This document shows, one piece after another, positions 9,697-35,585 of a stretch of DNA of 64,000 nt. The position numbers were made by a program, and so were the translations under genes. Every line of letters starts with the position of its first letter. Position 1 is the first letter of the stretch. The DNA comes from a bacterium (lineage in GTDB: Archaea; Thermoplasmatota; E2; JACPAO01; JAHFTW01): assembly GCA_040390065.1 (NCBI GenBank), contig JAZJZE010000006.1, forward strand, positions 32,001 through 96,000, in the 5' to 3' direction. The notes under the pieces are model-generated. The model was not told the origin of the DNA. It ran no database searches and saw nothing but the letters and a program-made list of their open reading frames with translations.

Positions 9697-12600
9697 ATGC
9701 AGCGCACGCAACCCACCGGCCGCCTGAACAGGTTCTCGGCCCTGACCCTGACGTCTCTCCTGGTAGTCGCCGGGCTTTTCGTCATCCCCCTGCTGGCCCC
9801 GAACGTCAGCGCTGCACCGCCCGTGGTCGCCAAACAATGGTACCAGGACCTCGACTGCAACGGCCACGTCGACGCGGTCACCATTGTCTTCAACGACCCG
9901 CTCGGCACCGCCGTGGCGATGAAGGACGACTCGATCCGTCCCTCCGACTTCACCCTCACCTACGCCCTCGGCACGGGCACCATCAGCATTCCCGCCAACG
10001 GCTTCATGACGACGGCACCCGTCCCCGGCTCCGGCTACCCCGCCGCCGGTTGCGTTGCCGGTGTCACCGCAGGCCTACCGTCCTCTCCCGGCACGAACCA
10101 ACCGACGGCGGCCAACGGCTGCCCCGCCGGAGCCGGCATCGACGACTCGTGCTTCACCCTCCTGTTCCCTGAAGGCCTCAACCCGGACGGCGGCCCCACG
10201 AACAACGGCGGCACGGCCTACAACCCGCCAGCCATCACGTACAACCCTGACGCTGCGGCACCGGCGCACACCGTCGCGGGCATCAACCTCGCGTCGCTTG
10301 GCGCTTGCGCCTCCGGCACCTGCCGGTTCGACGCGACCGCGCCGACGCTGCGCGCGGCCTACGCCAAGACCGGCGATTCGACCATCACCGTCCTGTTCTC
10401 CGAGAACGTCGGCGTCGGCGCCAACGCCGGCACCGTCCCGGCCGCCACGGACTTCTGCGTCACCGGCGCCGCGCAACTCGCGGGCAGCCCCCCTGTCTCC
10501 GTCCCGTCCGGAAGCCTGCCCAACCGCGGCTTCAAACTGACGCTCACGGCGCCCATTGCCAACCCCGCGGCCGTCACCGTCGGCGTCGGCAGCGGCACCT
10601 GCACCTCCAACATCGTCGACACCGCCGGCAACATCGTCCCCGGCCGCACGGTCACGACGGGCGCGCCCTTCGTCAACCGCGTCTATGCGAGCGCCGGCGA
10701 CGCGACCCTCGTGATCGAGTTCAACGGCCCCGTCTGGGACGGCACGACCGACATCACGCAGATTCAGAGCACCTTCGAGGTCATCACGGGTTCCGGCTCC
10801 GGCCTCACCGGCCTGCAGAGCACGGGCTTCCACACGAGCGGCTCCGACCGCGTCCAGGTCTCGGCCCAAGGCTCGCCGCCTAACAAGTGCGACATCACCC
10901 AGTCGGCGACCGATTGCGGTTCCGCCAACGCGGGCACCCGCATCCGCATCGCGGCCAACAAGATCTTCGGCTTCAAGGCGACCGGCATTCCTGAACAGCC
11001 CACCGGCACTCCGGTCGGCCCGTGCGTCTTCACCAACACCGCGGAGGATTTCTGCCTCAACGACCCCGTCAATGTCCCGACGCCTCCCGCCGGGGTCTCG
11101 GGCTCCATCACGGCGCCGCGCGTCGTGCAGTTCATGACCGAGGACACCAACCAGAACGGTTGCCTGGACACCATCAAGGTCACGTGGAACGAGAAGATGG
11201 ACGACAGCACGATTGGAGGAACGGGCTGGCGCGTCTTCTTCCCCAACGAGGTCGTGCAGACGCTGCCGACGATGCAGTCGCTTGAGCCGACGACCGGCGC
11301 CGGCGCGGCGAACGACCAGTACACGTACCTCAACTTCCTTGCGGGAGAGACCTGCACCGGCTCCACCCCGTCGCCCTACGGCAACACGGGCGTCCTGCCC
11401 CGGGTGTCCTTCTGCGACGGCATCGATGTCTCGCGCTCCGGCGCCTGCCTCACATCGACCAAGGACTTTTCGGGCCTGTTGAACACTGGCAGCCAAATGG
11501 TCGCCGGCAACAACATGGCTCTCAAGAATTACATCTACCGCGCCCCGACGGTCGACGGCGCCAAGCCTGTCATCGTGGCGGCTTCGACGCGCGACACGGC
11601 CCCCAACGACGGCTACCTCGACGCAATCAAGATCCAGTTCTCCGAGGGCATTGATGCAACCACGGTCGACGCGACGCAGTGGACGGCGGTCATCCCCGCC
11701 TGGACCGTCGCGGCCCGCTGCCCGCGCGCCGTCGGCTTCACCTACTCGGTGACGAGCGTCACGACGACCAACTCCAACCCGCAGACCCAGCCCGCGCTGC
11801 CGACCCTCGGCACACTCGCAGGCGACGTCATCCTCAACCTCGCGGCCACCCCGGTCACGAACCCGGTTGGCGACTCGGGCTGCGTCCCCGACGTCACGTA
11901 CACGGGCGGCGCCAAGTTCGTCAAGGAGTCCAGCGCCACACCGGGCGGCCTGCTGGCCAACAACGTCCCGGCGGACACGTCGATTGGCGTCTGCGCAGCG
12001 GACGGCACGCTCGGCGGCAACGGCAACACGTTCACCAACAACAAGCTGTGCGAGAACGATGGTGCGCCCCCCGTCATCATCCCGTCCCTGACGTTGGGCA
12101 CGGTCGGTTCCGACACGGCGTACGTCACGATGAGCGAGCCAGTGTTCGGTTCGGGCGGCGGTGCGCCTCCGGCAACCTGCGGCACGCCGGCGGCCGGTGG
12201 CACATGGGCGGCTAGCCAAGGCTTCCTGCGCGCCTCCGACTTCGACTACCAGGACAACTCCAACGGTGGCGCCACGGGCATCGCCGGAGTGAGCTCCATC
12301 AGCAGCGACTGCCGCAAGTGGCAGATCACCCTCAACGTCCCGAACGGCGGCGGCCTCAGCAGCTCGGACCAACTCGCCGACTGCATCCAGTCGCGCATTC
12401 CCACGTCGTCTGCCCAGGAAGGCATCCGCGATGCGGTCCCCGCAGCGCCTTGGGTCTCGCCCCCGGCCACACCGACCGGCATCGGCAACGTCGGCTACCC
12501 GACGGACGGCGCAACCATTCCCTGCGTCAAGTTCACGACTGGACCCTCGCCGGTCTCCGGCGCCGTCACGATGGACTCCGACAGGGACGGCTCCCTCGAC

Positions 12601-15600
12601 GCCATCCAAGTCACGTTCACGTCGAGCGTCAAGGACATCGTCACCAATGCGGCGACACCGGCCTTCGTGGCCGCCGCCTGTCCGGGTGACGCGGACTGTG
12701 GCGCCGCGTTCAAGGCCATCAGCGGATCGCTGGTCTGCCGCGTCGACGTCCTTCCGACTGCCGCTGGCACCGTCGGCCCCGAGGACCGCTTCTACGCCCA
12801 CGTGGGCGGCACATGCACGGCCACCGTCGCGGACGGAGACTTCCGTTACTCCGGAATGCCGGGCACGGCCGCCATCAACAAGAAGGCAGGGACCCCGGTC
12901 GTCTGTGTCGGCACGGCGGACGCTGACTGCGGCAATACCCTCACCGGCGTCACGGGAGGCACTCTGCGCCGGGTGGGTGGCCCAGGCAGCGGTGGCGCTC
13001 CCACGGCGACGGACCTGCTTTACAACGACGTCGGCGGCTCAAGCACGACGAACGTCGAGAACGGCGACTTCCGCCTGTCCGGCGCCGACTCGCGCGCCTG
13101 GTCCGTGACCTTCCCGTCCGGCGTCGCCATCGTGAGCGGTGTGAGCAGCGGCCAGGCCACCGGCCCCGGCACGCACTCCAACACGTTCGGCACCGCCCCC
13201 ACCGGCGCCGCCTGCCACGACTCGACGATCCTGACGGCCAACGTCGCCAACGACAACATCCTCTACATCTGCTTCGAGGAACTGCGCGACGCGGCCGGCA
13301 AGCTCATCCCGAACACGGGCGCGGTCCCGACGTTCAGCTACATGGGATCGACCCTGCTTGACTCGACGGGCGGCGTGATTGGTGTCTTCAACAACCAGGC
13401 GACGGTCGACGGCGCGCAGCCAGTCCTGGTCTCCGCCTTCGTCGGCACGGTTGCCACCGGCGCGTTGCCGATCCTCGGCGCGCAGCCCAAGACGATCACG
13501 GCCACGTTCAGCGAGCCGGTCACCGAGACGGGTGGCAACGCTCTCTTGGTCTCCGACTTCGCTTACACGAACGGCAACGCAGGTGCGGCCAACACGAACT
13601 GCCCCAGCGGCGCCGCGAGCCTTGCATCGCTCGTCTCCGGCGGCACGGCGCCCACGGGAACGCTCAGCCAGACGCACACGGTCGTGCTCACGACGGACGG
13701 GCCCATCACGACCTTCGACGTGGGGCCGAACCCCGTCACGGGCGTCTTCCTCGCCGGCGGCGGCACATGCCTGACAGTGTTCGACAGCGTCCGCGCCATC
13801 TCTGGCCAAGTGGTCGAGAAGGCGGCTCCGCACGCGACCGTCTACACGCCGGCCTCGGCCCTGCGCCTCACGGACGCGGAAGCTCCGAGCATCGCGAGCG
13901 CTGGTTTCATCGACGCCAACGGCGACGGCATCATCGACGCGGTCCAGGTCAAGTTCAACGAAATGGTCAACGACGCTCCGCTGACGGCCGCCGACTGGTC
14001 GGTCAAGATCGGAACGCAAGCGCTGACCATCAAGGCCGTGACGACGGGCCAAGACGGCACCGAAACCGTCGACGGGCCGGGCGTCTGCCAGAACACGTAT
14101 TCGCTCGCGACGGGCACGGGCGCCGTGAAGACGGTCTTCGCGCTGTACCCGGACGAGGTCACGCCCGCAACCGGATTCGGCAAGGGCCTCTTCGACGACA
14201 CCATCTTCCTCTGCCTCAACCCCGACGCGGCGACCGCCAACGGCGGCACCAAGACGCTGGGCACGGGAGCCACGGGCTCGCTGCTGTACTCCGCCGCTGC
14301 CCCCGCAAGCCGCATCACGGACGTCCAGATGGCGACGAACAAGTTGCAGGACCTCGCCGCGGCGGTCACCATCGCAGACCTGGCTCGCCCCGTCATCCTG
14401 AACAACTGCCGCGTCGGCTCGGTCCAAGCCGGGGCCACCTGCCCCGCAGATGTGTCCGACGTCAGCGTCGAGACGGTTGACCTCAACAGCAACGGCAAGA
14501 TTGACGCGCTGAAGGTCACGTTCTCGGAGAAGGTCAAGGACAGCACGTTCACGGTCGGCCAATGGAACCTCGCCGCACGCGCGCTCACGGGCATGCAGAG
14601 CGGCTCCATCGTCCCGACGCCGGCCGGCGAAGTCGACGACGCAACCATCTACCTCACCTTCGCCGAGGCCTCGTCGCTCGACAGCGGCACGGGCCGCTAC
14701 GGCTCGGCCACCATCCCCGACGTCGCGTACTTCGGTTCCGGCTCGATGAAGGACCTCAACAACAACCTGCTTCGCGGGGTGAGTCCCGGCGCGTGCAACG
14801 CACCGACCGTCGGCTGCTCCGACGAACGCGACGGCGCTGCCCCGACCATCGTATCCATCACGGCTGCGCCCGGCACGAACCTGGTCACCATCCAGTTCAG
14901 CGAGAACGTCGGCACGGGTGCGACGGGCACGGGCGCCATCGGCACGGCCGACCTGGCGTACGTCAACACTGCCTCGGGCGGTGCCTCCAGCATCAACAGC
15001 ATCAGCCACGCCGTCGGCAGCTCGACCCTGACGCTCACGCTGAATGCCAACCTGAACTCGGCCGATGTGGCAAGCGGCGGAGACAAGATCGTCTTCACAC
15101 CGGGCAACATCAAGGAGTTCAACTGCGGCGCCCACACGCCCCCGTACGCTTACCCCATCGTCGGCCCTGCGGCGCCCAACTCGTGCTACCGCGAAATCGC
15201 GATCACGCAGTCCAGCGTCGAACTCGCAGGTGTCAAGAGCCACGCGCCGCCGACCGCCCCGGTCCTCACGAAGGACCCAACCGGTGACACGGCAACGGGC
15301 GCCAAGTTCACCTGGACGGTCCCGACGACATCCGGTGGCGCGACCCTGGCATCCTACGAGTTCTTCGTGTGCCAGGCCCCGACGCTCCCCGCGTCGCACG
15401 CGGGCTGTGTTGCTCCGACCGGCGGCCAACCCGCCGCCTCGGCCACGTCGCTCACGGTGACCGGCCTTACGACGGGCAGCACGTACAGCTTCGGCATCCG
15501 TGCCATCGACTCGGACGGCCTGGCTGGCGCCGACTCCAACGGCATCAACGGTTATGTCCCGGCCGCGCCGGACACCGATCCGCCCTGCGCCATCACCGAC

Positions 15601-17061
15601 CTCTCGGTCGGCACGACGACCAGCAACTCGGTCACCCTGACATTCCAGTCGCCGTTCGAGGACTGCGCCGCCCACGCGGGCAAGGTCAAGAGCTACAAGG
15701 TTGCCGTCTCGACGGGCACCGCGATCGGTTCGCAGGCGCAGTTCGATGCAGCCGTCGCGACGACGGGCCTGTCGTTCAGCCCCGCCACGCCGCAAGCGAA
15801 CCCGACGCTTCAGGGGCTGACGGTCAGCAACCTCCAGCCCGGCCAGCAGTACCTCATCAGCGTCGAGGCCGTCGACGACGCCACCCCGACGGCCAACGTC
15901 GGTCCCCTCGGCGCCGCCGTCCCCGCAACGCCGTCGGCTCCTGGTGGGACGCCCGCCAAGATCGTCGACCTCGCCGTCACGGCCGGGTCGGCCTTCGGCA
16001 GCGTCGACCTTTCATGGTCAGCGCCGCCCAAGGACAGCCTCCTCGGAACGGGCACCGTGACGGGCTACGATGTCCGCATCACGACCTCGCCCGGTGGCCT
16101 CGGTGTCCCGGTGAGCAGCAGCGACCTGAGCTTCGGCTTCGGAACGCCGGGAGCACCGGGCCAACCGCAGAGCGCCACCATCTCGGGTCTGTCCGCCGAC
16201 ACGACGTACTACATCACCGTCGCCGGCAAGAACCTCGGCACGACCGGAACGCCGTCGACCCCCGCGTCGATCACGATCGGTTCCGACCCCAACGCGCTCA
16301 CCGTCGCGGCACTGACCGCGTTCGAGACCAGCTTCGCGAACACCCTCAAGGTCACGAACTCGGGCGGCACGAACACGCTGACCTGGGACACGCCGCCGGG
16401 CGACGCGACGCACGCGGCCGAGGGCATCCAGATCTGGAAGTCCACGAACGGCGGCCCGTACACGCTGGTCAAGACCATCTCGTCGCTCAGCCCCGAGTAC
16501 GGCCTGAAGTCGATGACGGACCCCGGCTCGTCCTCGGACAAGTACCGCGGGACGGTCTACTACGGCAACACGGCGGCCAGCGGGTTTGCCGCCAACGGCG
16601 ACCCCAACAGCATCCCGGGTTTCTCGAGCCTCCACGAGGCCAGCGCATCGTCCAACTTCCTGGGTCTCGACCCCATGATCTGGTGGATCATCATCGCGGC
16701 CGTCGGCCTGCTGTTGCTGCTGCTCATCATCCTCCTCATCGTCCGCAGCCGCCGCAACAAGGGCGGCGACTTCGCCGAGGAAGACGACGACGGAGGCTTT
16801 GCCGCGGTCGACGAGGGTGCCGAGGCGGCGCCTGCCATGGAAGCGCCCGATGCCCCGCCGGCGGATGCAGCCGCGGATGCGGCCGCAGCTTCGGCCGCCG
16901 TAGCCGCCGCCGCAGAGACGCCGCCGCCCGCGCAACCACAGGCCTCGGCCGAAAAGCACTACCTCACGTGCCCCAAGTGCACGACCGAGTTCACGGCCAT
17001 GGGTGTCAAGCCGCTTGCCATCCAATGCCCGAACTGCGGTGTCCGCGGCACGCTCCGTTAG
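9697..17061 (+). CDS. Giant surface protein 1 (~2454 aa): six DxDxDG Ig-like modules, three FN3-like domains, TM helix, C-terminal zinc ribbon
   Basis: Signal peptide; motifs DLDCNGHVD, DTNQNGCLD, DTAPNDGYLD, DSDRDGSLD, DANGDGIID and DLNSNGKID, each followed by a strand ending in F/W, usually F(S/N)E; FN3-like LTTGSTYSF, LQPGQQY, LSADTTYY; TM IWWIIIAAVGLLLLLLIILLIV; CPKC-x15-CPNC. Confidence 0.9.
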   Translation: MQRTQPTGRLNRFSALTLTSLLVVAGLFVIPLLAPNVSAAPPVVAKQWYQDLDCNGHVDAVTIVFNDPLGTAVAMKDDSIRPSDFTLTYALGTGTISIPANGFMTTAPVPGSGYPAAGCVAGVTAGLPSSPGTNQPTAANGCPAGAGIDDSCFTLLFPEGLNPDGGPTNNGGTAYNPPAITYNPDAAAPAHTVAGINLASLGACASGTCRFDATAPTLRAAYAKTGDSTITVLFSENVGVGANAGTVPAATDFCVTGAAQLAGSPPVSVPSGSLPNRGFKLTLTAPIANPAAVTVGVGSGTCTSNIVDTAGNIVPGRTVTTGAPFVNRVYASAGDATLVIEFNGPVWDGTTDITQIQSTFEVITGSGSGLTGLQSTGFHTSGSDRVQVSAQGSPPNKCDITQSATDCGSANAGTRIRIAANKIFGFKATGIPEQPTGTPVGPCVFTNTAEDFCLNDPVNVPTPPAGVSGSITAPRVVQFMTEDTNQNGCLDTIKVTWNEKMDDSTIGGTGWRVFFPNEVVQTLPTMQSLEPTTGAGAANDQYTYLNFLAGETCTGSTPSPYGNTGVLPRVSFCDGIDVSRSGACLTSTKDFSGLLNTGSQMVAGNNMALKNYIYRAPTVDGAKPVIVAASTRDTAPNDGYLDAIKIQFSEGIDATTVDATQWTAVIPAWTVAARCPRAVGFTYSVTSVTTTNSNPQTQPALPTLGTLAGDVILNLAATPVTNPVGDSGCVPDVTYTGGAKFVKESSATPGGLLANNVPADTSIGVCAADGTLGGNGNTFTNNKLCENDGAPPVIIPSLTLGTVGSDTAYVTMSEPVFGSGGGAPPATCGTPAAGGTWAASQGFLRASDFDYQDNSNGGATGIAGVSSISSDCRKWQITLNVPNGGGLSSSDQLADCIQSRIPTSSAQEGIRDAVPAAPWVSPPATPTGIGNVGYPTDGATIPCVKFTTGPSPVSGAVTMDSDRDGSLDAIQVTFTSSVKDIVTNAATPAFVAAACPGDADCGAAFKAISGSLVCRVDVLPTAAGTVGPEDRFYAHVGGTCTATVADGDFRYSGMPGTAAINKKAGTPVVCVGTADADCGNTLTGVTGGTLRRVGGPGSGGAPTATDLLYNDVGGSSTTNVENGDFRLSGADSRAWSVTFPSGVAIVSGVSSGQATGPGTHSNTFGTAPTGAACHDSTILTANVANDNILYICFEELRDAAGKLIPNTGAVPTFSYMGSTLLDSTGGVIGVFNNQATVDGAQPVLVSAFVGTVATGALPILGAQPKTITATFSEPVTETGGNALLVSDFAYTNGNAGAANTNCPSGAASLASLVSGGTAPTGTLSQTHTVVLTTDGPITTFDVGPNPVTGVFLAGGGTCLTVFDSVRAISGQVVEKAAPHATVYTPASALRLTDAEAPSIASAGFIDANGDGIIDAVQVKFNEMVNDAPLTAADWSVKIGTQALTIKAVTTGQDGTETVDGPGVCQNTYSLATGTGAVKTVFALYPDEVTPATGFGKGLFDDTIFLCLNPDAATANGGTKTLGTGATGSLLYSAAAPASRITDVQMATNKLQDLAAAVTIADLARPVILNNCRVGSVQAGATCPADVSDVSVETVDLNSNGKIDALKVTFSEKVKDSTFTVGQWNLAARALTGMQSGSIVPTPAGEVDDATIYLTFAEASSLDSGTGRYGSATIPDVAYFGSGSMKDLNNNLLRGVSPGACNAPTVGCSDERDGAAPTIVSITAAPGTNLVTIQFSENVGTGATGTGAIGTADLAYVNTASGGASSINSISHAVGSSTLTLTLNANLNSADVASGGDKIVFTPGNIKEFNCGAHTPPYAYPIVGPAAPNSCYREIAITQSSVELAGVKSHAPPTAPVLTKDPTGDTATGAKFTWTVPTTSGGATLASYEFFVCQAPTLPASHAGCVAPTGGQPAASATSLTVTGLTTGSTYSFGIRAIDSDGLAGADSNGINGYVPAAPDTDPPCAITDLSVGTTTSNSVTLTFQSPFEDCAAHAGKVKSYKVAVSTGTAIGSQAQFDAAVATTGLSFSPATPQANPTLQGLTVSNLQPGQQYLISVEAVDDATPTANVGPLGAAVPATPSAPGGTPAKIVDLAVTAGSAFGSVDLSWSAPPKDSLLGTGTVTGYDVRITTSPGGLGVPVSSSDLSFGFGTPGAPGQPQSATISGLSADTTYYITVAGKNLGTTGTPSTPASITIGSDPNALTVAALTAFETSFANTLKVTNSGGTNTLTWDTPPGDATHAAEGIQIWKSTNGGPYTLVKTISSLSPEYGLKSMTDPGSSSDKYRGTVYYGNTAASGFAANGDPNSIPGFSSLHEASASSNFLGLDPMIWWIIIAAVGLLLLLLIILLIVRSRRNKGGDFAEEDDDGGFAAVDEGAEAAPAMEAPDAPPADAAADAAAASAAVAAAAETPPPAQPQASAEKHYLTCPKCTTEFTAMGVKPLAIQCPNCGVRGTLR

Positions 17062-20400: not shown

Positions 20401-22596
20401 GCTGTCGAGGGCCACAAGGTCATCGGCATGCGCACCCGCGACCCGAACGTCGTCGACCTCACCGGCCTCACGAACGTCGACAACGAGGTCACGCTGCTCT
20501 TTGCCCCGGGCGACCACCCGGATACCGGCGAGCGGCCCAAGCTCACGTACTTCGGCCCGTCGCAGCCCACGTACGGCTTCAAGGATCTGCAAGGCGTCCA
20601 GATGCTGCCCCTGCAGCCGATCGACGGCTTCGAGGAGGACGATGCAGCACCGGTCATCACGTTGGTCGAGGGCTTCCTCGGCCGCAACAACGTGACCATC
20701 CGCTTCAGCGAGCCCGTCGACAACGGCCAGAAAGGCGCCCTCGGGCGCTCCAGCCTGCTGTACTTCAACATCGACCACTTGCCCGACGGCGTCTCCGGAT
20801 TGTCCTCGCAGGACGCAGTCGTGCACTTCGCCGCCACGGACAACCTGATTGCGCACCTGAACTGCCCCGTCAACGCGCCCAAGACGGTGCCGGACTGCGG
20901 CAACATCGGCTTGCAGGTGCACGACATCCAGAACGACACCATCTCGGCCGAGCTGAACTCCATCTGGGAAACGTCCCCCAGCGTCCCGTCGCCGCATGTC
21001 GTTTCCAAGAAGTCCGTGTCGGTGAAGAACCACCACCTCGGCAACGCCATCGACATCTTCCGCCCCGCCAACGTCACGCAGTTCCAGGTCGTGAAGCAGC
21101 TGACGTCCGCCAACTCGGTGACCCTGAGCTGGAAGGCGCCCGGCAACGACGGCAACGGCTTCGGCTCGGTGCGCGGCTACCGCATCAAGGTGTCGACGCA
21201 GAAGATCGCCCCCGGCGACTTCAACGTCTCGTCGGCGCCGGGCAGCTACGGCCTTGGCGACTCGAACCCGAACGCCACCCTCAACGCCGACGGCAGCGCC
21301 AATATCGTGCGGCTGCGCGGCGACCAGGTCTACGCCATCCTCAGCCCCGACGCGGGCGGACTGGCCGGTCCTGGCGAGTACCAGCAGGCGACCATCATCG
21401 GCCTGCAGGCCCAGACCACGTACCACTTCGCCGTCGAGGCGTTCGATGCCGCGACGCTGCCGCCGTGCTACACGACGGATGCAGGTCACACGACGTTTGC
21501 CGCCCCAGTGGCCGCTTGCCCCTCGACCAACACGAAGCGCGTCGACTTCCGCCACTTCTCCGGCATGCGACCGGATGACGTCTCGATTGCCGCGACGCAG
21601 TACGACGTCTCCACGGCGACCGGCATCGACCTGACGCCGCCGGTCCCGACACCGGTCATCGCAAGCACGACGCACCCGGCGAACCGCCCCGACCCGAAGA
21701 TGACCGCCATCTTCAGCTGGACGAACGCGACGGACGGCGAGTCGACGGTGAACTACCACTACGCGCTCAACACGGACCCGCAGTACAAGGTCCTCGTCAC
21801 GGACTTGGTCTACACGGGCGCTGCCAACCTGCCGAGCGTCTCGATCCCCATCCCGAGCCGCGGCACGTGGTACTTCCACGTCGCGGCCTTCAGCGGCGGC
21901 GGCTCGACGGCGACGGCGCACTACACCATCATCGTGGACCGCCCGACCATCGACCCCGCGGACATCCGCGAACGCAACGACCTCGTGCTCACGAACGCGA
22001 CGCGCGACGGCGCGACCAACTCGGTGACGTGGCACCTGCCGGACCAGGCGCTCCTGCCCCCCGGCGGCCAACTCGAGGGCGTCGACATCTACGCCATCGA
22101 AGGATGCGGCTCCTCGACGGGCTGCACGGTCGTCAACGCCCACTCGATCACCGGCACGTACGACCAACTGCAGTCGGGCACGTGGACGGACGACCGCGCG
22201 ACGGCCGGAAGCGTCACGGGCTACCGCGTCGAGATGGTCTTCGCCAACGCGCAGACGCAGACGCCGACCGGCGGGAGCCACAGCGTCCAGGGTTTCGCCG
22301 CCATCCAGGAACAACCCGGCCACGACAACTCCGCGCTCTGGTGGCTCCTGGCCGCTGTCCTACTGGTTCTCGTGGCGGCCGGCATCGCCTTCCTGGTGAT
22401 CCGCAGCAAGCGCGCCAACGCTGCAGCCTTCGAGGAGATCCCCTCGGAATCGACCGCGGCGGGCATGGACCCCGTGACCGGCCTGCCGGCACATGACGTG
22501 CGCTGCCCCTCGTGCCAGACGGCGTTCCAGGCGGTCGGCAACCTGCCGCTGCAGATCACCTGCCCCAACTGCGGTGTTTCGGGCCTGCTGCAGTAG
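17401..22596 (+). CDS. Giant surface protein 2 (1731 aa), paralog of giants 1 and 3
   Basis: Signal peptide; DTNFNGLLD, DMDRDGQVD and EGDGYLDG modules; FN3 (TLSWKAPGNDG..LQAQTTYHFAV); GTWYFHVAA; TM; CPSC-x15-CPNC. Confidence 0.9.
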   Translation: MVAGSPKPKYRAPARILMVAAVLLLGSLMPAIGPAAAQSGSTTLMTGPFFDDAGSQTFPHCPTTPTNPALKAQNDDGIWQVRQVTVISSTDVNQVTFDYVVGTGTGVGANQRIEWGTSTAGSKAAGWPSISVSNGAASGNLNRLTFSGGTLSHLSLAGQVFTIAFRVIGSPAADVYTQLGAGKVSVTAGSKDVVGTGTAFTQFFAVGNTFKVSGDAHQYKVASIQDATHLKLTDKLVGSSITPTTALNYTKIDPATTTTPATFPVKVDNDASICIVIDMTPPHVISAYTRDTNFNGLLDEMVLTFDEEMDPTTLNPASFAVNASSSGEPIPYSVLPSNGKSLVKGLGSDDGHFSDPACTTASPPANACVNLEKTLKLSLAEGYKYDTGVLPEVTYPKAGESATFSDLAHNPLANITNSDLTEVDGAKPVLVSVFDFEGATSMIATFSEPVTGSGPKSGAQAGDVDNCIGGLGCVRTTDFFYYDRCAGKLSSDSQCNPATGLSHMSGTNCITAQSGLSPEIGVSMHTPGPTNGNTVTLPVIAVASDPGCDVAGKGQGVKGYVGKGDAQQALGDVIALNTMASEPVSSITCPGIDFLPCGALVRDATGLRGVPTAPCSIANVCNAGAGPGGGANGIKGATSSLPLVVDAVVNIDTFQVTLNFNGPVSDASGDDKPLTLQDLTVISADGPSNSQGPGGITQILHRAGASRAILTLDKKVRPTDVDDTPTKIGIKCNAIKGTRQAAFVPCGDPDGTGGSGVALIDNVLPAILKAETVDMDRDGQVDGLFLEFNEPVDDTTFCQLGNAPPPAECYPGSGGVGLQVGKYHHPADATGPETKYVFDTDASPGGVGAPISVDQGNGQPNDRFGIIKFVNPFKQPIGLGTADPADTAITTTAAGLFSDLSHPGPPTQPPYAQAKQMAQICPTGCLGSVKLLDGAPPVLLSALTVDTRLTVPGAPTVNDLEGDGYLDGYRMTFSEPVLDKSFCHNNLQTGPVYLCNSVEWAVEGHKVIGMRTRDPNVVDLTGLTNVDNEVTLLFAPGDHPDTGERPKLTYFGPSQPTYGFKDLQGVQMLPLQPIDGFEEDDAAPVITLVEGFLGRNNVTIRFSEPVDNGQKGALGRSSLLYFNIDHLPDGVSGLSSQDAVVHFAATDNLIAHLNCPVNAPKTVPDCGNIGLQVHDIQNDTISAELNSIWETSPSVPSPHVVSKKSVSVKNHHLGNAIDIFRPANVTQFQVVKQLTSANSVTLSWKAPGNDGNGFGSVRGYRIKVSTQKIAPGDFNVSSAPGSYGLGDSNPNATLNADGSANIVRLRGDQVYAILSPDAGGLAGPGEYQQATIIGLQAQTTYHFAVEAFDAATLPPCYTTDAGHTTFAAPVAACPSTNTKRVDFRHFSGMRPDDVSIAATQYDVSTATGIDLTPPVPTPVIASTTHPANRPDPKMTAIFSWTNATDGESTVNYHYALNTDPQYKVLVTDLVYTGAANLPSVSIPIPSRGTWYFHVAAFSGGGSTATAHYTIIVDRPTIDPADIRERNDLVLTNATRDGATNSVTWHLPDQALLPPGGQLEGVDIYAIEGCGSSTGCTVVNAHSITGTYDQLQSGTWTDDRATAGSVTGYRVEMVFANAQTQTPTGGSHSVQGFAAIQEQPGHDNSALWWLLAAVLLVLVAAGIAFLVIRSKRANAAAFEEIPSESTAAGMDPVTGLPAHDVRCPSCQTAFQAVGNLPLQITCPNCGVSGLLQ

Positions 22597-22852: not shown

Positions 22853-22921
22853 CCCCCAGATTGGAGAACCATGGGACCGGTGCGCCTTTTGGTGACGCCG
22901 GCCTCAAGACGAGGTCAAATC

Positions 22922-25900
22922 ATGGCATCGAAGTCGAGCCGAATGGGTCAGCTGCTGGGTCCCCTGGTGCTGGCGTTCCTGATGGTCTTCACGGTCCTTG
23001 CGACGGTGACACCGCAAGCACAGGCTGCCGTGACGAGCCGACCGGAAGGCAAGGTCCTGATCACCACGGAGCCCGACTTCAACCTCCCCAACTACGACCA
23101 GATGGGGCCCACCGGGTCGATCTTCTACCCGTGGCAGGCGCAGCCGCCCGGACCGACGACGCAGCCGCCGCAGGTCGTCAACAACCCCTTGGCGACGTAT
23201 CCGAAGAACCCGGCGACCGTGTACGTCAACACGAAGCACCAGGACCCGGACGGCAAGTGTCCGGGCTGCTTCCAGCGCACGGTGCGCGTCGCCTTCAACG
23301 ACATGGCCGTGACCCGCATCGACTTCGTCGCCCCGACCCGCGACGCCTTCTCGACGCCGGTCTGCAGCAACACCCCGGTGGATGCCTGGGCCGCCGCGAT
23401 GGACCCGTGCAAGGACCACGGCATGCTGCGCTGGCGCCCCGAGTATTCCTACGCCACCCGGCCTGGCTGGGCCGTGAGCGTCAACGCGGAGAACGCGAAG
23501 AAGAGCCAATGCGACGACCCGATCAAGTGCGCCATGGGCGACGACACGCCGCCGGCGCGCATCATGAGCTTCACGTCCGACGTGCCGAACCCGGTGCCCA
23601 GCCTGCTCTTGGGAACGACGCCGGGCGACGCTCGCCTCGCCAACGCCCTCGATATCGTGCTTGCCTTCTCCATCGATGGCACGCCTTCTGGCGACGACGG
23701 CATGCAGACGTTCCCGCAGACGCCCGCCGACGAATTCCACGTCCAGATCAACGTGACACCGTCGGGAAACCCCAACATCCCGTTCGAGACGACCTGCCCT
23801 GCATGGAACTCGGCCACCGGCGTCAACGGCAACCCGCAAAGCCCCTTCACCTGCGTCTACACCAACCCGCCGTTCAAGGGACCTGCGCCCGTCAACTTCC
23901 CGGCTGAGTTCATCGCCGACCCGCGCTTCTCGTCCGTCGACTGCGGTGTCCCGGGCGGCTTGTGCACCGGCACTCCTGGCCTCGTGATCCGCGTCGACAA
24001 CACGCCGCCGGAAGTCCACGAGACGTCCAACGGCGACGCCCGCGTGGCTGCCGGAAACGGCGGTCCCATCCCGTGTGTCTGCAGTTTCTTCTCGCAGGAC
24101 GTCGACCACAACGGCCACATCGACCGCTTCATCGTCTCGTTCACCGAGCCGCTGAACCCGAACACCTTCGACTTCCGCCAGTTCAGCATCCAGACGAAGG
24201 GCCGCGACCGCCCCTACACGATCACGAACGCCTTCTTCGAGCAGCAGAGGGCCGGCCCCGGCCCCGAGGAAGGCCTGTGCTTGCAAGGGCTCACGACCCC
24301 GCCCGCGCAGACGCCGCCTCTCACGCCGATTCGCATCACGTACCCTGGCTCGACGTGCCGCGTCGACTTCCTCGTGGCGGAGATGCCCTTCATGGACTCC
24401 GGCGACACGCCGAACCTGAAGTATCCCTGTGACCTCTGCCCCGCGACGGCCACGGACCGCGCCGGCAACCCGCTCAAGAAGATGACTGGCACGACCATCC
24501 TCGCCGTCGACCGCGCCCCACCGATCCTCTACTCGACGTACGCACTCGACGCCGCCCACAACGGTGGCGTCCCCTACGCGCAGACGGAACTGCAGGTCTT
24601 CTTCTCCGAGAACGTCATGGGCTCTGGCTGCAACGACCCGCAGGCCGGCCCGCCCGCAACCTGCGGCACGCGCCCCGTCCAGTTCAACGACTTGTGCTAC
24701 ATGGACAATGTCTCGCCCGGCGGTGCCGGCGACGTGATCGGCAAGCCGACGCCAGACCTGCCCTCGGGTGGCCGCGTCATCACGAGCATCACGACGACCA
24801 TCAATCCGTCCGACACGCTGAACTTCGCGACGGGCCCCGTCATCACGGCCGGCCAGATCTACTACATCGGCACCGTAACATCGGGAACGACGACCGGCGG
24901 CGGCGCCACCAGGCTCATCGACACGAGCAAGAACTTCGCAGCCATCGGCGTCACGGTCGGCATGATCATCGACTTCAGCGGCGGATGCTCGGCGCCCATC
25001 GGCGCATGCACCGGCTGCTTCTCCCTCGATACGCCGTATGACACGACATCGGCCGTCTGCCAGCCCGCACCCAAGTGCCGCTACTTCGACCTCGTCGACC
25101 ACACGCCGGCACCGGGTGCCAGCTCCGTCGGCACGGCTGGCGACGGCTGGAAGATGCGCGTGCTGACGATGCTCAACCCGACGGACACCAACAACCGACT
25201 CATGTACGGTTCGGCCGACGTGCATCCGTTCAACGGCGACATGATCACGGTCAACGTCGCGCCGCACGGACTGACGCGCGGCTGCTTCGCCGTCATGCTG
25301 GAGCAAGGCATCCTCGGCACCGACCCGTGCAACGCCGACGTCCGCGACCTGCACGACAACGGCGCCTGGTACCCGACCGGCCTGCCGCGCGTGGCCTACC
25401 CGCGCCCGCCCGCCTTGGCGCATGTGACGTTCCCGATGGTCAAGTCGGCGACCGTCGATTCAAGCAACCCCAGTTGCCCGCAGTCCACGCCCGGCAAGGG
25501 CGTCGGTCCCGGTGACCTCACGGACACGGTTGCCTGCCACTACTGGCTGAAGCTGCAGTTCAATGGCCCGGTGCGCGGCCCCAACGGCCCCGCCTCGTGC
25601 GACACGACGACCGGCAGCGGCAAGACGGCGAAGCCGTTCTTCGCCTGCAACCTCGACATCAAGGCCGCCACCGGCAAGGAGCTCGGCCAAGGCCCGCAGG
25701 GCTTCTTCGGCCCGGCGCCGCCGTCCACGACCGGCTCAAGCAGCACGGCCACGCAGGCGCCCTACTACCTGATGGGCGACAACGACCAGGCAGTCCTGCA
25801 GATGGACTACGCCGCCCGACCCATCGACGTCTCCCTGAGCGGAGCGCGCGTCAAGCTCGTCTGCAACACCATCTTCGCAACCCCGGGCTGGGTCAGCAAG

Positions 25901-28900
25901 TACAGCCTCGACCCGAGCACGACCGGCGTCAACCCGCTGGTCGGCGCCATCCCCTGCGACGACCCCGACCAGTACTACGGTCCGCAGGAAGACTTTGGCG
26001 GCGTCGTGCAGCGCCCCGACATCGACATCGTCGACCTGACGCCGCCTCGCATCCTCGAGGCCCGCACCGTCGATGCCGACCACAACGGCTACCTCGACGG
26101 CGTGCAGCTGACCTTCAGCGAGCCCATCGACGACGGCAGCTACTGCGGCAACGACCCGTCCGCGCAGGCCGCGCCCAACTTCTGCCCTGACACCGAATCC
26201 GGCGCCGGCACGGGCTACATCACGTTCTCGCGTTGGACTTCGCAGGAGATGATCCGCGCCATGACGGACGTGCACGAGGAAGAGTGCTTCGCCTCGTCCG
26301 GTACACTGGACGGCACCGACACGGGCACGCCCTACACGGACGGCTTCAAGTGGGACACGGGCACGCTGTCCAACGACAACGTCGGCACCATCCTGCACGT
26401 GCGCACACTGACGCAGCAGGACGGCTCTTACATCACGCGTCCGCAGGACTGCAACGAATACTTCCGTGGCGTCCGCATGGATGGCCTGCCAAACCCGCCT
26501 GCCCCCAACGGCGACGGCGCGACGCGGCCCCTGCAGCGCTGGCCGACGGATTCGCTCCTGCACATCACTTCCCCGGTGCCCGGCCTCTTCTCGGATCTGG
26601 CGACCCATCCGTTCCACGACAACTCGGACATCTTCAGCCCGCCCAACTCGCCGCCGGTTGCCAACCCCAACCAGTTGCCGCGCATCTGCCAGTTCGAGTC
26701 GCGCGCCATGACGGGCCAGGCGGGCACCTACAACCAGGTGCAGAGCCACCCGAGTGCGGCGTGCGACACGACGCAGATCACGGTGGATTCCGTGCGTGTG
26801 ACGGACGGCGCGCCGCCCGTGCTCTGGAAGGCGCAGACGTACGACACGCCTGTCCTCGATGTCAACGGCATCCCCGACACCAAGAACTTCTGGAACAACC
26901 TGTTCGGCGACGGCACCATCGACGGCTACCGCCTGACCTTCAGCGAACGGGTCAACGACGGAAGCTTTGTCGCCGCCGACTGGCACGTGGCGGGCCACGA
27001 CACGCTGGAGTTCACCAACCCGACGGGCTGCAGCAAGCCGGGCAAGACGACGTATGTCAACCACGAGGTCACGATCGACACCGTCATCCCGGGCAAGGCC
27101 CTCATGCGGACGCGGGACACGACGCTGAACCCGTTCGACCCGCTGCAGAACGACCAGATCTCGCAGGGCCAGAGCGACGACCAGTTCATCCTGCTGTTCA
27201 CGCCGGCGAAGACCATCTTCACCAAGCCGGACGGCTGCAAGGAGTTGCACGCCGCGTACGACACGGAGACGAAGCCTGAACTGACGGCGTCCGGCCCCAA
27301 CGGCCACTTGCACATGGCGGACCGCGCCGGCCTCCTGAAGCCGAACCCGATCTGCCCCAGCAACACCGCCAACTGCTGCCCAGGCGGGCCGTCCATCAAC
27401 AACTGCATGGTCGACTTCGACACCTTCGCCGTGCAGGAAGAGGACCGCGCCGGTCCACAGATCGTGCGCATCGAGGGCTTCGCCGGAACGAACCACATCG
27501 ACGTGCGCTTCAGCGAACCCGTCGACGACGGCAGCCACAGTGGCCTGGTGCGCGACGACTTCCAGTACTTCGACAAGAACGCCAAGGACGTGGCGGGCTT
27601 CTCCAGCACGGAGCCCGTGGAGTCCACGGCCGGTGGCCGCAACTCCACCATCCACCTCGGCCAGCTTCTGACGGTCTCCGACCAGACGTCGGACAAGATC
27701 GCCGCCAGGACCTGTCGCATCTACGAGGTCGCTCCGTCGGTCAGCCCGTCGCAGCGCCAATGCGTGCCGAGTTACCCGCGCTCGCTCGTGCCCGAGAACG
27801 ACACCGCCGCGCCCGGCGCCCTGTCCGACTTCCGCATCGTGGCCGAGCTCACGAACGCCAACAGCCTGACAGCGAGCTGGACCGCGCCTGCCGACGACGG
27901 CACGGCCGGCAAGCCAGTGTCGGGCTACACGTGCCTCGTCGGTACGCGCACGATCCTCGGCAACGAGACGAACGACAACCGCATCAGCTTCTCGTACGAC
28001 CCGCCGGTGTCGTCGCTTGCCGGACCGGGCCTCACGCAGACCGTCCGCATCGCAGGCCTCGACTCGGAAGCCAAGTACTACATCGCCTGCTACGCCAAGG
28101 ACGATCTCGGCAACCTGTCGCCGCTGTCCGAGGTGGCGTCCGGGACGACGACGCGCGATGTCACGCCGCCGACCGGCACCATCACCATCAAGTCGCCGTC
28201 GCACCCCGCCGGCGTCCCGACGGCTGGCAACACCATCTCGTTCACCTGGAACGCCATCACGAAGGCGCAGGAGCCCGAGTCGACCGTGGTGTACCACTAC
28301 GCGCTCAACACGAACCCGAACTACGTGGTTCTCGCCACCGACGGTGCAACCCAGGACACGAAGGTGACGCAACTCGCTCCGGGCGACGGCACGTACTACT
28401 TCCACGTCGCGGCCATGAGTGGCGGCGGCTCGACGCTCACGGCCCACTACCAGGTCGTGGTCGGCTTGCCCCCGCTGACGGTCGCCTCGATCGAGTCGGC
28501 CAACGACCTCGTCAAGACCGAGCCGTTCCGCCAGGAGCAGGAGTTGAACGGCCAGACGGTCGTCCTCAACAACGTCACCTGGACGCTGCCGCCGGACACG
28601 ACCCCTCCCGGCTTGGACATCAGCGGCGTCGAGATCTGGCGCGAGGACCACGGCATCTTCACGAAACTGAACCTCGCCGACACGGACCCGAAGATCTGCT
28701 CGCACCCGCTGTCGGGCTCGTACGACGACCTGAAGAGCGGTCACTGCTGGGACACGAGCCTAGGCGCCACCGCCGACTCGAAGTACAAGGTCACGATGGT
28801 CTTCGCGACCCCCCCGCACACGCAGGGCGAACCCGTGAAGGGCTACGCCGGCCTCGTGGACCAGACACCGGGAGTCGTCCCGCCGTGGATCTGGATTCTG

Positions 28901-29161
28901 GCCGGCATCGCGCTGGCGCTCATCCTGTCGGGTCTCGTGATCTTCGTGATCCTGAAGCGCCGCTCCAAGCTCGAAGCCACCGGCGGCACCGCCTACAGCT
29001 GGGAGTCGGCCAACCCCGAACTCCTCGGCATCGACGAGGCCACCGGCCTGCCCGTGCACGAAGTGCGCTGCCCGTCCTGCAACAACCCGTTCCAGGCCGT
29101 CGGCGCTCTCCCCTTGCCGGTCACGTGCCCGACTTGCGGCACGACCGGGGAACTCGAATAG
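22922..29161 (+). CDS. Giant surface protein 3 (~2079 aa), colinear paralog of giant 2
   Basis: GAGGT SD at 22911; signal peptide; DVDHNGHID, DADHNGYLD and FGDGTIDG modules; FN3; YHYALNT.P.Y.VL.TD and YFHVAA.SGGGST.TAHY shared with giant 2; TM; CPSC-x15-CPTC. Confidence 0.9.
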   Translation: MASKSSRMGQLLGPLVLAFLMVFTVLATVTPQAQAAVTSRPEGKVLITTEPDFNLPNYDQMGPTGSIFYPWQAQPPGPTTQPPQVVNNPLATYPKNPATVYVNTKHQDPDGKCPGCFQRTVRVAFNDMAVTRIDFVAPTRDAFSTPVCSNTPVDAWAAAMDPCKDHGMLRWRPEYSYATRPGWAVSVNAENAKKSQCDDPIKCAMGDDTPPARIMSFTSDVPNPVPSLLLGTTPGDARLANALDIVLAFSIDGTPSGDDGMQTFPQTPADEFHVQINVTPSGNPNIPFETTCPAWNSATGVNGNPQSPFTCVYTNPPFKGPAPVNFPAEFIADPRFSSVDCGVPGGLCTGTPGLVIRVDNTPPEVHETSNGDARVAAGNGGPIPCVCSFFSQDVDHNGHIDRFIVSFTEPLNPNTFDFRQFSIQTKGRDRPYTITNAFFEQQRAGPGPEEGLCLQGLTTPPAQTPPLTPIRITYPGSTCRVDFLVAEMPFMDSGDTPNLKYPCDLCPATATDRAGNPLKKMTGTTILAVDRAPPILYSTYALDAAHNGGVPYAQTELQVFFSENVMGSGCNDPQAGPPATCGTRPVQFNDLCYMDNVSPGGAGDVIGKPTPDLPSGGRVITSITTTINPSDTLNFATGPVITAGQIYYIGTVTSGTTTGGGATRLIDTSKNFAAIGVTVGMIIDFSGGCSAPIGACTGCFSLDTPYDTTSAVCQPAPKCRYFDLVDHTPAPGASSVGTAGDGWKMRVLTMLNPTDTNNRLMYGSADVHPFNGDMITVNVAPHGLTRGCFAVMLEQGILGTDPCNADVRDLHDNGAWYPTGLPRVAYPRPPALAHVTFPMVKSATVDSSNPSCPQSTPGKGVGPGDLTDTVACHYWLKLQFNGPVRGPNGPASCDTTTGSGKTAKPFFACNLDIKAATGKELGQGPQGFFGPAPPSTTGSSSTATQAPYYLMGDNDQAVLQMDYAARPIDVSLSGARVKLVCNTIFATPGWVSKYSLDPSTTGVNPLVGAIPCDDPDQYYGPQEDFGGVVQRPDIDIVDLTPPRILEARTVDADHNGYLDGVQLTFSEPIDDGSYCGNDPSAQAAPNFCPDTESGAGTGYITFSRWTSQEMIRAMTDVHEEECFASSGTLDGTDTGTPYTDGFKWDTGTLSNDNVGTILHVRTLTQQDGSYITRPQDCNEYFRGVRMDGLPNPPAPNGDGATRPLQRWPTDSLLHITSPVPGLFSDLATHPFHDNSDIFSPPNSPPVANPNQLPRICQFESRAMTGQAGTYNQVQSHPSAACDTTQITVDSVRVTDGAPPVLWKAQTYDTPVLDVNGIPDTKNFWNNLFGDGTIDGYRLTFSERVNDGSFVAADWHVAGHDTLEFTNPTGCSKPGKTTYVNHEVTIDTVIPGKALMRTRDTTLNPFDPLQNDQISQGQSDDQFILLFTPAKTIFTKPDGCKELHAAYDTETKPELTASGPNGHLHMADRAGLLKPNPICPSNTANCCPGGPSINNCMVDFDTFAVQEEDRAGPQIVRIEGFAGTNHIDVRFSEPVDDGSHSGLVRDDFQYFDKNAKDVAGFSSTEPVESTAGGRNSTIHLGQLLTVSDQTSDKIAARTCRIYEVAPSVSPSQRQCVPSYPRSLVPENDTAAPGALSDFRIVAELTNANSLTASWTAPADDGTAGKPVSGYTCLVGTRTILGNETNDNRISFSYDPPVSSLAGPGLTQTVRIAGLDSEAKYYIACYAKDDLGNLSPLSEVASGTTTRDVTPPTGTITIKSPSHPAGVPTAGNTISFTWNAITKAQEPESTVVYHYALNTNPNYVVLATDGATQDTKVTQLAPGDGTYYFHVAAMSGGGSTLTAHYQVVVGLPPLTVASIESANDLVKTEPFRQEQELNGQTVVLNNVTWTLPPDTTPPGLDISGVEIWREDHGIFTKLNLADTDPKICSHPLSGSYDDLKSGHCWDTSLGATADSKYKVTMVFATPPHTQGEPVKGYAGLVDQTPGVVPPWIWILAGIALALILSGLVIFVILKRRSKLEATGGTAYSWESANPELLGIDEATGLPVHEVRCPSCNNPFQAVGALPLPVTCPTCGTTGELE

Positions 29162-35583: not shown

Positions 35584-35585
35584 CC

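Follow-up and report, generated by a model that had tools for sequence, protein, structure and literature searches.

Tandem giant surface proteins of a Thermoplasmata archaeon share a conserved tail with a predicted cytoplasmic zinc ribbon

The Locus and the Three Giant Proteins

The stretch analyzed here, further called the window, comprises 64,000 nucleotides of an archaeal genome (positions 32,001–96,000 of contig JAZJZE010000006.1, assembly GCA_040390065.1, forward strand; coordinates below are those of the window unless another contig is given). Its subject is a trio of tandem paralogous genes on the plus strand, encoding giant, presumably surface-exposed proteins of 2470, 1731, and 2096 amino acids (aa), 18.9 kb in sum, all ending in the same kind of tail. 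The window is archaeal, containing genes for the PolD large subunit and for NAC; the genome (2.68 Mb, 67% GC, 50 contigs) is estimated to be 89% complete. The genomes of the nearest relatives have been deposited as metagenome-assembled genomes of 'Thermoplasmata archaeon', and one as Halobacteriales. The latter is the closest relative (CAZVJB010000007.1, 'uncultured Halobacteriales archaeon'); it has the same trio, with a tail 88% identical over the 106-aa query, and its label is probably wrong.

The gene of protein 1 occupies 9697..17061 if counted from the first ATG (9697), while the open reading frame (ORF) starts from TTG at 9649, and the 2470 aa are counted from there. Its product has a signal peptide, six immunoglobulin-like (Ig-like) modules with predicted Ca loops, plain Big_5-like modules, at least three FN3 domains, a transmembrane (TM) helix (16678..16743, aa 2344–2365) beginning with IWW and followed by RSRRNK, a 71-aa acidic linker, and a zinc ribbon (16957..17058, aa 2437–2470) of the basic type, with the C-terminus ...GVRGTLR. 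Protein 2 (17401..22596, 1731 aa) consists of a signal peptide, three Ca-loop modules, Big_5, FN3, a TM helix (22336..22401, aa 1646–1667, then RSKR), a 30-aa linker, and a zinc ribbon (22492..22593, aa 1698–1731) ending in ...GVSGLLQ. Protein 3 (22871..29161, 2096 aa; 2072 aa in the database copy, whose start is 24 codons downstream) has a signal peptide, three Ca-loop modules, an FN3 and PKD-like region, a TM helix (28886..28954, aa 2006–2028, then KRRSK), a 34-aa linker, and a zinc ribbon (29057..29158, aa 2063–2096) ending in ...GTTGELE. All these features lie on the plus strand.

The hydrophobicity profile of each giant shows an N-terminal signal-like segment and exactly one other strong segment, near the C-terminus. 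All three linkers contain acidic stretches, and all three proteins end in H-x3-CPxC-x15-CPxCG-x2-G-x-L-x-stop, the last Cys being seven residues before the end. Outside this region the proteins differ: the identity is 33% over approximately 970 aa for proteins 2 and 3, and 24% over approximately 550 C-terminal aa for proteins 1 and 3. The sequence-only reading of the locus had claimed three adjacent paralogs of about 19 kb with highly diverged ectodomains, each with FN3 domains, one TM helix, an acidic linker, and a terminal ribbon whose last Cys is followed by a stop after seven residues, and all of this stands.

Its description of the trio as Cys-rich holds in part. The Cys content (2.0, 1.85, and 2.6%) is above the genome mean of 1.19% (1118 long ORFs; 90th percentile 2.3%), but the other large surface proteins of this genome have a similar one. 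Each protein has an even number of Cys residues beyond those of the ribbon (46, 28, and 50, respectively), which is compatible with disulfides in the ectodomain. A six-frame regular-expression scan of the 2.68 Mb finds loose CxxC...CxxC ends in 28 frames of at least 80 aa, and the full tail motif in these three frames only, which excludes its origin by chance.

Conservation and Range of the Tail

The profile built from the TM helix and the tail was run over the genomes of the order (31, including this one) and 10 genomes of other orders of the class. Matches are seen in all 24 other genomes of the family and in all six genomes of two sister families. In 19 of the 31 genomes the match terminates an open frame of at least 1000 aa; in the remaining genomes of the order it falls into shorter frames, several of them on short contigs. 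The stronger matches in the 10 genomes of other orders are mostly ribbon-only and reside in small frames. Comparison of the 20-row profile with 1.84 billion cluster representatives yields 830, 223, and 1 matches at E ≤ 1e-3, 1e-10, and 1e-30, respectively. Hence, the profile search that had been proposed as a check reveals a unit conserved across the order, with 223 representatives at E ≤ 1e-10. A word-indexed protein search finds only nine close relatives, all unnamed or 'hypothetical'; a related-locus search with a 3-row alignment gives four true relatives and two spurious bacterial matches. Where relatives in the databases are named at all, the name is 'hypothetical protein'.

The exact end C..C-x15-C..C-x7-stop is present in 109 of the 154 proteins collected, and a looser C-terminal ribbon in all 154; the ribbon is always the end of the protein. 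Among 107 non-identical exact tails, the CPxC pairs, Phe (+4), Pro (+11), and Gly (−4) are conserved in 100%, another Gly in 99%, Leu (−2) in 97%, and His (−4 from the first Cys) in 86%. At least two Lys or Arg residues within eight positions after the TM helix are seen in 102 of 105 members with a clear helix. The helix starts with WxW or WW in 60 of 105 tails, often within P-x-W-x-W. The linkers (105 tails) are net acidic, with a length of 23–164 aa (median 38), and 51 of them contain an aromatic–acidic motif. Acidic repeats with Trp (WDD, WEE, DxW) recur in many linkers, e.g., in loci L014, L015, L016, and L019; such motifs may be short linear binding motifs, or may mediate a GltJ-like fold-back onto the ribbon.

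Orthologs from this genome and from G004 or G007 retain 26–37 identical residues among the last 38, vs. 39–67% identity of the ectodomains. The tail identity of orthologs with ectodomains in this range is 79–97%. The tail is a real, conserved unit, constrained far more strongly than the ectodomain. It is also selective in its distribution: 12 other ORFs of at least 1000 aa in this genome (1000–2100 aa) end in a C-terminal TM helix and a basic stub with no ribbon, in agreement with the earlier claim that ordinary S-layer proteins do not have it. In all, the ribbon is absent from 62 other C-terminally TM-anchored ORFs, smaller and larger, only two of which have the P.W/W.W start. Among the large surface proteins of the genome, the tail is restricted to the very largest.

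Tails fall into two charge classes, ...KPL...G[VRK][KR]G.L[RN] and ...LPL...G..G.L[QED]. The usual arrangement in the family is a giant with a basic tail followed by a giant with a neutral or acidic one. Trios are found in this genus (G000, which is this genome, G004, and G007) and pairs in G016, G017, G018, G019, and G023; single-copy genomes and lone tail-bearing giants also occur. The ancestral arrangement was apparently two giants in tandem, one with a basic and one with a neutral or acidic tail, and the trio of this genus, as compared with the usual pair, suggests duplication of the second gene.

Topology and Fold of the Tail

The last 110 aa were modeled with AlphaFold2 (AF2) using the 20-row alignment, with a mean pLDDT (predicted local distance difference test score) of 81. 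The model contains a helix at residues 19–50 (pLDDT 97), which includes the TM helix of protein 3, and four short strands at residues 75–109 (pLDDT approximately 90), formed by its ribbon. The two CxxC knuckles on hairpins that define the zinc-ribbon fold are present, CPxC-x15-CPxC being invariant in the 107 tails and forming a predicted metal site. Foldseek finds only weak matches of the tail model (E ≥ 0.3), all of them zinc ribbons: eS27 and other small ribosomal proteins, LysW, NrdR, Tim15, and the ZitP finger 2nb9. At E ≤ 0.001, Foldseek gives no match for the tail model or for the model of the ectodomain module, and a sequence-profile search of the PDB with the tail yields nothing below E 0.1.

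The ribbon is placed in the cytoplasm because of the signal peptide, the positive-inside rule, and the four-Cys site. The claimed type I topology with a cytoplasmic tail is thus supported by sequence rules (signal peptide, single TM helix, Lys/Arg cluster, four-Cys ribbon) and by the AF2 model, both of which predict that the tail lies inside and not outside the cell.

Profile libraries recognize the ribbon below their thresholds. For the tail of protein 3, Zn_ribbon_8 (PF09723) scores 20.0 bits vs. the cut-off of 34.4, and Zn_ribbon_4 (PF13717) 19.8 vs. 30.3; such sub-threshold matches to both families are seen in 20 of 20 aligned tails, with the best E-values of 9e-6 and 7e-4, respectively. 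MJ0042_CXXC (TIGR02098) reaches 13.5 bits vs. 20.9, and the FmdB family CxxC_CxxC_SSSS (TIGR02605) 17.2 vs. 31.3. As no curated model of Pfam or NCBIfam passes its threshold, the tail can be regarded as a distinct, tight subfamily within the generic zinc-ribbon clan. A value of 0.81 in the ESM Atlas points to a Thermoplasmatota Zn_ribbon_4/DUF7560 cluster, which is taken as a lead only.

Ectodomain Modules

The predicted Ca loop, D-x-[DN]-x-[DN]-G-x-[ILV]-D, is seen in its loose form six, three, and three times in proteins 1, 2, and 3, respectively, and in its strict form five, two, and two times. Each loose-pattern loop leads into a strand ending in FSEPV-like residues, so the module counts of the sequence-only reading are reproduced by the looser pattern. 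All three proteins score above the gathering cut-off (25 bits) of the Pfam fn3 family (PF00041), with 78.9, 25.6, and 26.3 bits, respectively. Big_5 (PF13205, cut-off 23.6) scores 26.2 bits in protein 2 and 17.2 in protein 1, with no match in protein 3.

Among 93 large relatives there are 123 strict Ca-loop modules, with a minimum spacing of approximately 108–140 aa; 44 of the 93 have no such module, hence the tail travels with different ectodomains. The Asp, Gly, and Asp positions of the predicted loop are invariant in 34 aligned modules; the module consensus is P.i.sA.T.D.D.DG.iDa..ltFsEpvdD.tF....w.v ... DTG..P.l.Y ... D.aGN.l ... D.A.Pv. Its D.aGN.l end resembles the end of Pfam Big_5.

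The AF2 model of the module, built from the same 34 modules (pLDDT 66), is an Ig-like beta-sandwich. Its best structural match is the S-layer protein SbsC (Foldseek E 0.037, probability 0.99; VIA Z 8.8, root-mean-square deviation 2.4 Å over 86 residues). Further VIA matches are Sap (Z 5.7 and 5.2) and EA1 (Z 4.7), and also CopC and the MG domains of alpha-2-macroglobulin. Since VIA Z of 8–9 is barely above the level reached by unrelated models, the module is read as Ig-like, likely of the S-layer type, and no more. No characterized S-layer family matches the trio at E ≤ 0.1 in the Pfam and NCBIfam scans, the likeness being that of the fold of one module.

Related Ribbon Proteins in the Phylum and in the Genome

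In a sample of the phylum, 85 of 201 genomes have a match at E ≤ 1e-8. Twenty short stretches and 12 longer loci from other classes were inspected. They contain frames of 1000–2232 aa with a TM helix, an acidic or lysine-rich linker, and one to three ribbons; the common ribbon signature is CPxC-x3-F...[RK]P[LI]...CPxCG..G.[LI], and the spacers between the CxxC pairs in the stretches, where measured, are 15–17 residues. Tandem pairs occur here as well, in L110 and in L108, the latter with a first ORF truncated by the locus boundary. Proteins P0102, P0104, P0120, P0134, P0077, and P0150 combine PKD, right-handed beta-helix/NosD, or Big ectodomains with a TM helix and two or three ribbons.

These giants and loci L105–L113, all unannotated or 'hypothetical', resemble the trio in the overall plan and in the recognizable ribbon signature. 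They differ in having several ribbons with spacers of 13–17 residues that pass the Zn_ribbon_4 threshold, in the families of their ectodomains, and in lacking transglutaminase-like and FtsX-like neighbors. Judging by these sequences, the plan of a large ectodomain, a TM helix, and one or more predicted cytoplasmic ribbons is widespread in the phylum, and the window contains its single-ribbon, strictly terminal form. Thus, the earlier claim that the architecture is undescribed stands insofar as no description was found in the literature searched; however, the architecture is not peculiar to the trio, related proteins being present throughout the phylum, and the ribbon is neither a unique fold nor a unique family.

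Ribbons of this kind are also seen on other proteins. A 756-aa Hsp70/DnaK-like database protein (P0148) has several C-terminal zinc ribbons, the last one with the same signature. A second tandem trio of this genome (locus L008, contig C13, 26900–30208; minus strand, ORFs 707–1912, 1498–2337, and 2365–3198 of the locus) encodes polytopic proteins of 401, 279, and 277 aa without a Pfam family, whose C-termini carry RRL[KR]CPxC-x13/14-CxxCG ribbons after a Pro/Ala-rich linker; a 454-aa polytopic protein with the same kind of end is encoded on contig C9 (approximately 499511–500914). A small protein with about two TM helices (contig C5, 254385–255347, minus strand) has an acidic linker and a terminal CxxC-x15-CxxC-x7-stop ending in ...MLR; it is unrelated to the giants, yet its tail has the same spacing. 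Membrane proteins with a terminal cytoplasmic ribbon seem to be a general feature of this organism.

Genomic Neighborhood

Upstream of the trio and on the same strand lie the genes for a transglutaminase-like lipoprotein (4248..5936, lipobox LSGC), a neighbor recurring in relatives; a lipoprotein-like protein of no known family (5936..6910), whose upstream position is conserved in G004; and a surface protein with Ca-binding thrombospondin type 3 repeats (6974..9493; Pfam TSP_3, 88.6 bits). The latter has a plain anchor of a C-terminal TM helix and RRK, with no ribbon, and is kept directly upstream of the giants in G004 and, partly, in G007. Downstream, also on the plus strand, is the gene for an FtsX-like permease (29502..30899) with one N-terminal TM helix, a large outside domain, and three C-terminal TM helices; no ATPase gene is present beside it in the window.

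Orthologs of the FtsX-like gene were found in 18 genomes (17 besides this one). In 10 of these, from at least four genera (G000, G002, G004, G005, G006, G007, G008, G017, G019, and G022), it shares contig and strand with a tail-bearing giant, which it follows at a distance of 0.1–4.2 kb; in the other eight, the two genes are on different contigs, and the arrangement 'same contig but distant' was never seen. Of the 28 genomes having a transglutaminase-like homolog, 11 have it upstream of the giant, with contig and strand in common.

Two genera have additional genes between the last giant and the FtsX-like gene, for RimK-like ATP-grasp and AstE/AspA-like proteins (G007, L023:52–2009; G017, L024:2905–4949), joined in G017 by a gene with a DAC (c-di-AMP cyclase-like) domain (L024:5456–6304). 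None of these genes is present at this place in the window, and we judge the RimK-like/AstE-like pair an unrelated insertion.

Elsewhere in the window, positions 36001–40000 have a GC content of 0.73–0.74 vs. approximately 0.68 in the rest, with AT skew up to 0.31. An ORF at 36844–39273 (plus strand, 809 aa) has a first-position GC content of 0.85 and no Pfam family, and no gene is called at 34335–36843. The sole RNA gene that ARAGORN and Rfam detect in the window is tRNA-Gly(GCC) at 44494–44565 (plus strand).

Proposed Function and Alternatives

The giants can be pictured as type I membrane proteins of the glycocalyx, of an S-layer-like coat, or as adhesins of an uncultured high-GC Thermoplasmata archaeon. 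The ectodomain would be exported by Sec and would form a chain of Ig-like (Big_5/SbsC-like) modules followed by FN3 domains, many modules having a predicted Ca-binding loop of the DxDxDG type between the first two strands; disulfides are probably formed within it. By module count, the Ig-like and FN3 domains number about 12 or more. One TM helix, often with P-x-W-x-W at the start and a Lys/Arg cluster at the end, would hold the protein in the membrane, while a flexible, net-acidic linker (23–164 aa) would present the 34-aa four-Cys putative zinc ribbon in the cytoplasm. There, the ribbon may dock a conserved partner in the cytoplasm or close to the membrane (for instance, a scaffold, an assembly factor, or the cytoskeleton), which would tether or position the giants. 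The setting would be a cluster with the transglutaminase-like lipoprotein upstream and the FtsX-like permease downstream. The architecture, the range of the family, the constraint on the tail, and, by sequence rules and model, the topology are shown here; binding of Ca, binding of Zn, the surface-coat role, and docking are inferred.

We give a probability of about one half to this reading, that is, membrane-anchored coat or adhesin proteins with a cytoplasmic ribbon serving as a protein-docking module. Docking is suggested by the constraint on the tail together with its strict coupling to the TM helix and to a tether of very variable length, and by the absence of the ribbon from ordinary anchored proteins of the same cell. 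The similar terminal ribbons on small membrane proteins of the genome suggest a common cytoplasmic ligand. Further, the membrane-attached ribbons that have been studied and that we take as functional analogues (ZitP, GltJ, CdpC) dock proteins. The variable linker length is more readily reconciled with a binding module on a tether than with a plug at the membrane, and the long, variable linkers weaken the idea of a 'cytoplasmic plug'.

Several observations weigh against this interpretation. By sequence the ribbon is generic, with no curated family reaching its threshold, and its conserved residues are largely those the fold itself expects. The N-x-S/T sequons (1, 10, and 7 in proteins 1, 2, and 3) are few for a classical archaeal S-layer glycoprotein. 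The synteny check proposed with the sequence-only reading points to no docking partner, no cytoplasmic gene being conserved beside the cluster and all conserved neighbors being extracytoplasmic or membrane proteins. The neighbors themselves are not constant companions of the tail. In G002 and G006 the transglutaminase-like gene resides on another, long contig than the giant; FtsX-like matches in the two sister families are weak or missing; and tblastn finds neither FtsX-like nor transglutaminase-like genes beside the related genes of other classes (12 loci). Hence these neighbors cannot be the universal partner of the ribbon, and the FtsX-like permease was rejected in this role, showing no linkage outside the family.

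Among other explanations, the tails of co-encoded giants might simply bind each other: basic and neutral or acidic tails would pair or cluster on the cytoplasmic face with no separate partner, and in this way would set the stoichiometry or the lattice of a two- or three-component surface layer. The recurrence of tandem pairs and trios (G004, G007; G016–G019, G023; L110, L108) and the systematic charge difference between the two tail types are in line with this, but genomes with a single copy and lone tail-bearing giants are not, and the small membrane proteins with the same kind of tail argue for a more general ligand; we consider such self-association fairly unlikely. Less likely still is a handle for biogenesis or quality control. 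The ribbon could be a stably folded, Zn-locked stopper that fixes the Nout–Cin orientation and keeps the single TM helix from being dragged out by the pull of the 200-kDa ectodomain, or it could be a tag by which a chaperone or a protease controls insertion or turnover; the conserved FtsX-like permease, which has a MacB-type mechanotransmission fold, would take part in assembly. The position of the ribbon at the very C-terminus, the last part made, would suit this role, as would the FtsX-like gene downstream in 10 of 18 genomes and the restriction of the tail to the very largest surface proteins of the genome. However, linkers of up to 164 aa place the ribbon far from the membrane, the 12 other ORFs of 1000–2100 aa are anchored without it, similar tails are present on small 2-TM and polytopic proteins, and the FtsX-like gene is unlinked in sister families and other classes.

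We attach very little weight to binding of nucleic acid or membrane lipid, with the ribbon as, e.g., a DNA or RNA tether or a membrane-surface sensor. Zinc ribbons commonly bind nucleic acids, ribosomal proteins and NrdR are among the nearest structural matches, and the N-terminal ribbon domain of CdpC is reported to bind the membrane through an amphipathic helix (bioRxiv 10.64898/2026.07.16.738847); but the neutral to acidic tails of proteins 2 and 3 and the net acidic linkers are unfavorable for contacts with nucleic acid or anionic lipid, and the prediction shows no amphipathic helix beside the ribbon. It is just as improbable that the P-x-W-x-W motif, the TM helix, and the tail form a C-terminal sorting signal cut by an archaeosortase-like enzyme, leaving the ectodomain lipid-anchored or released. 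The genome does encode a protein of the exosortase/archaeosortase family (contig C9, 466295–467341, locus L102; TIGR04178, 59 bits vs. the cut-off of 23), although no curated subtype passes (ArtC, 65 vs. 100), and there is the semi-conserved motif at the outer boundary of the TM helix. In the six-frame search, the TM helix of protein 1 scores 24.9 bits with GG_III-CTERM, above the cut-off of 22, but it stays below this level in hmmscan (18.2), which gives no match to this model in proteins 2 and 3; this 28-position model also produces sub-threshold matches in 9 of 14 control genomes, and no other CTERM model matches the trio. Known signals of this type stop a few basic residues past the TM helix, while here 64–105 residues follow it, including the best-conserved part of the protein, and due to these constrained residues cleavage is rated unlikely. 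Likelier substrates are approximately 10 of the 62 other C-terminally anchored ORFs of the genome, in which a K-[ST]-PG[FLV]-E-like motif was noticed by eye before the TM helix; the P.W/W.W start, in turn, is rare among plain anchors, as noted above. The tail is not convincingly matched by any curated sorting model and does not reduce to an already described generic sorting signal. The PG[FLV]-type ORFs and the exosortase-family gene may represent a PGF/PEF-CTERM-like system in this Thermoplasmata lineage.

Returning to the docking module, its boldest extension would be transmembrane coupling throughout the phylum, the giants being tethered by their ribbons to a cytoskeleton or scaffold, e.g., filaments of the FtsZ or CetZ type, much as the ribbon of CdpC is to FtsZ1, with the basic and acidic tails of a pair as adaptor halves. 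We regard this as quite unlikely. Complex prediction for the tail (68 aa) and the FtsZ1-like protein of this genome (24 orthologs) gave 0.00 in both runs, which, with the fold of the partner uncertain, counts neither way; by sequence hallmarks, we take this protein to be FtsZ1 rather than FtsZ2. The genome, of roughly 2,500 proteins, also encodes two CetZ-like tubulins, on contig C5. Many Thermoplasmatota have no rigid wall. Were such coupling real, it would provide coordination across the membrane for the placement of the coat, the shape of the cell, or its division, in a prokaryotic analogue of the integrin– and cadherin–cytoskeleton links.

Archaeal surface proteins are usually pictured as passively anchored by a helix or a lipid, with nothing inside. 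Here, the largest envelope proteins carry what is predicted to be a folded cytoplasmic domain, more constrained than their own ectodomains and present order-wide and, in a looser form, phylum-wide. This provides a concrete, testable case for physical coupling between the envelope and the cytoplasm in these uncultured archaea. The 34-residue tail is a sharp probe for finding the partner by pull-downs, hidden Markov models, or antibodies, and the family of 223 cluster representatives (E ≤ 1e-10), all 'hypothetical', has been missed by curated domain libraries.

Comparison with Known Systems

Archaeal C-terminally anchored surface and S-layer glycoproteins, as well as SbsC, Sap, and EA1, resemble the trio in having a signal peptide, a chain of Ig-like domains, and a C-terminal membrane anchor. 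An example of an archaeal surface glycoprotein is csg of Haloferax volcanii, which carries PGF-CTERM. Unlike in the trio, only a few basic residues follow the membrane segment of known anchors, or an archaeosortase exchanges the anchor for a lipid. In the literature searched, no surface or S-layer anchor with a folded cytoplasmic domain and no C-terminal cytoplasmic ribbon on an archaeal surface protein is described. The trio also differs from S-layer proteins in that no S-layer family model matches it and in its few N-glycosylation sequons. The nearest item in print is a remark on N-terminal Zn_ribbon_4 extensions of some Thermoplasmatales heliorhodopsins (bioRxiv 10.1101/2021.02.01.429150).

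Closest in layout among the bacterial systems are ZitP and GltJ. The finger of ZitP (2nb9) is among the weak structural matches of the tail model, and there is no significant sequence match of the tail to ZitP or GltJ (TIGR02098, 13.5 vs. 20.9 bits; nothing at E < 0.1 in the profile search of the PDB). The ZitP and AgmX fingers belong, as we assume, to the MJ0042 type. According to the respective reports, the membrane-attached four-Cys ribbon of ZitP from Caulobacter crescentus binds PopZ (PMC5182065), and the ribbon of GltJ/AgmX from Myxococcus xanthus binds its own linker and recruits MglB in the focal-adhesion machine (PMC11135422). As described there, both are like the trio in having one TM helix, a CxxC...CxxC four-Cys ribbon facing the cytoplasm, and a larger part outside the membrane; the differences are that these proteins are bacterial, the ribbon is N-terminal (type II topology), and the outside domains are small, the spacing in the GltJ ribbon being x19 vs. 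x15 in the tail of the trio (PMC11135422).

The archaeal counterpart is CdpC of Haloferax volcanii (HVO_0399, DUF7093). According to its description, the C-terminal ribbon of CdpC binds FtsZ1, Cys mutants lose the binding, and distant multi-ribbon relatives are present in all classes of Thermoplasmatota (bioRxiv 10.64898/2026.07.16.738847). The scan with the Pfam family models gives no DUF7093 match in the three giants at E ≤ 0.1. In the same account, CdpC is small and peripheral, attached through the amphipathic helix of its N-terminal ribbon domain, and differs from the giants in this respect; like them, it is archaeal and membrane-held, and a long disordered linker leads to its CPxCG-motif ribbon, which ends the protein. 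Both elements of the plan, the cytoplasmic ribbon of a bitopic membrane protein and the surface protein built as an Ig chain with a C-terminal anchor, are thus of already known kinds; what is new is a defined, unannotated tail family and the phylum-wide architecture to which it belongs.

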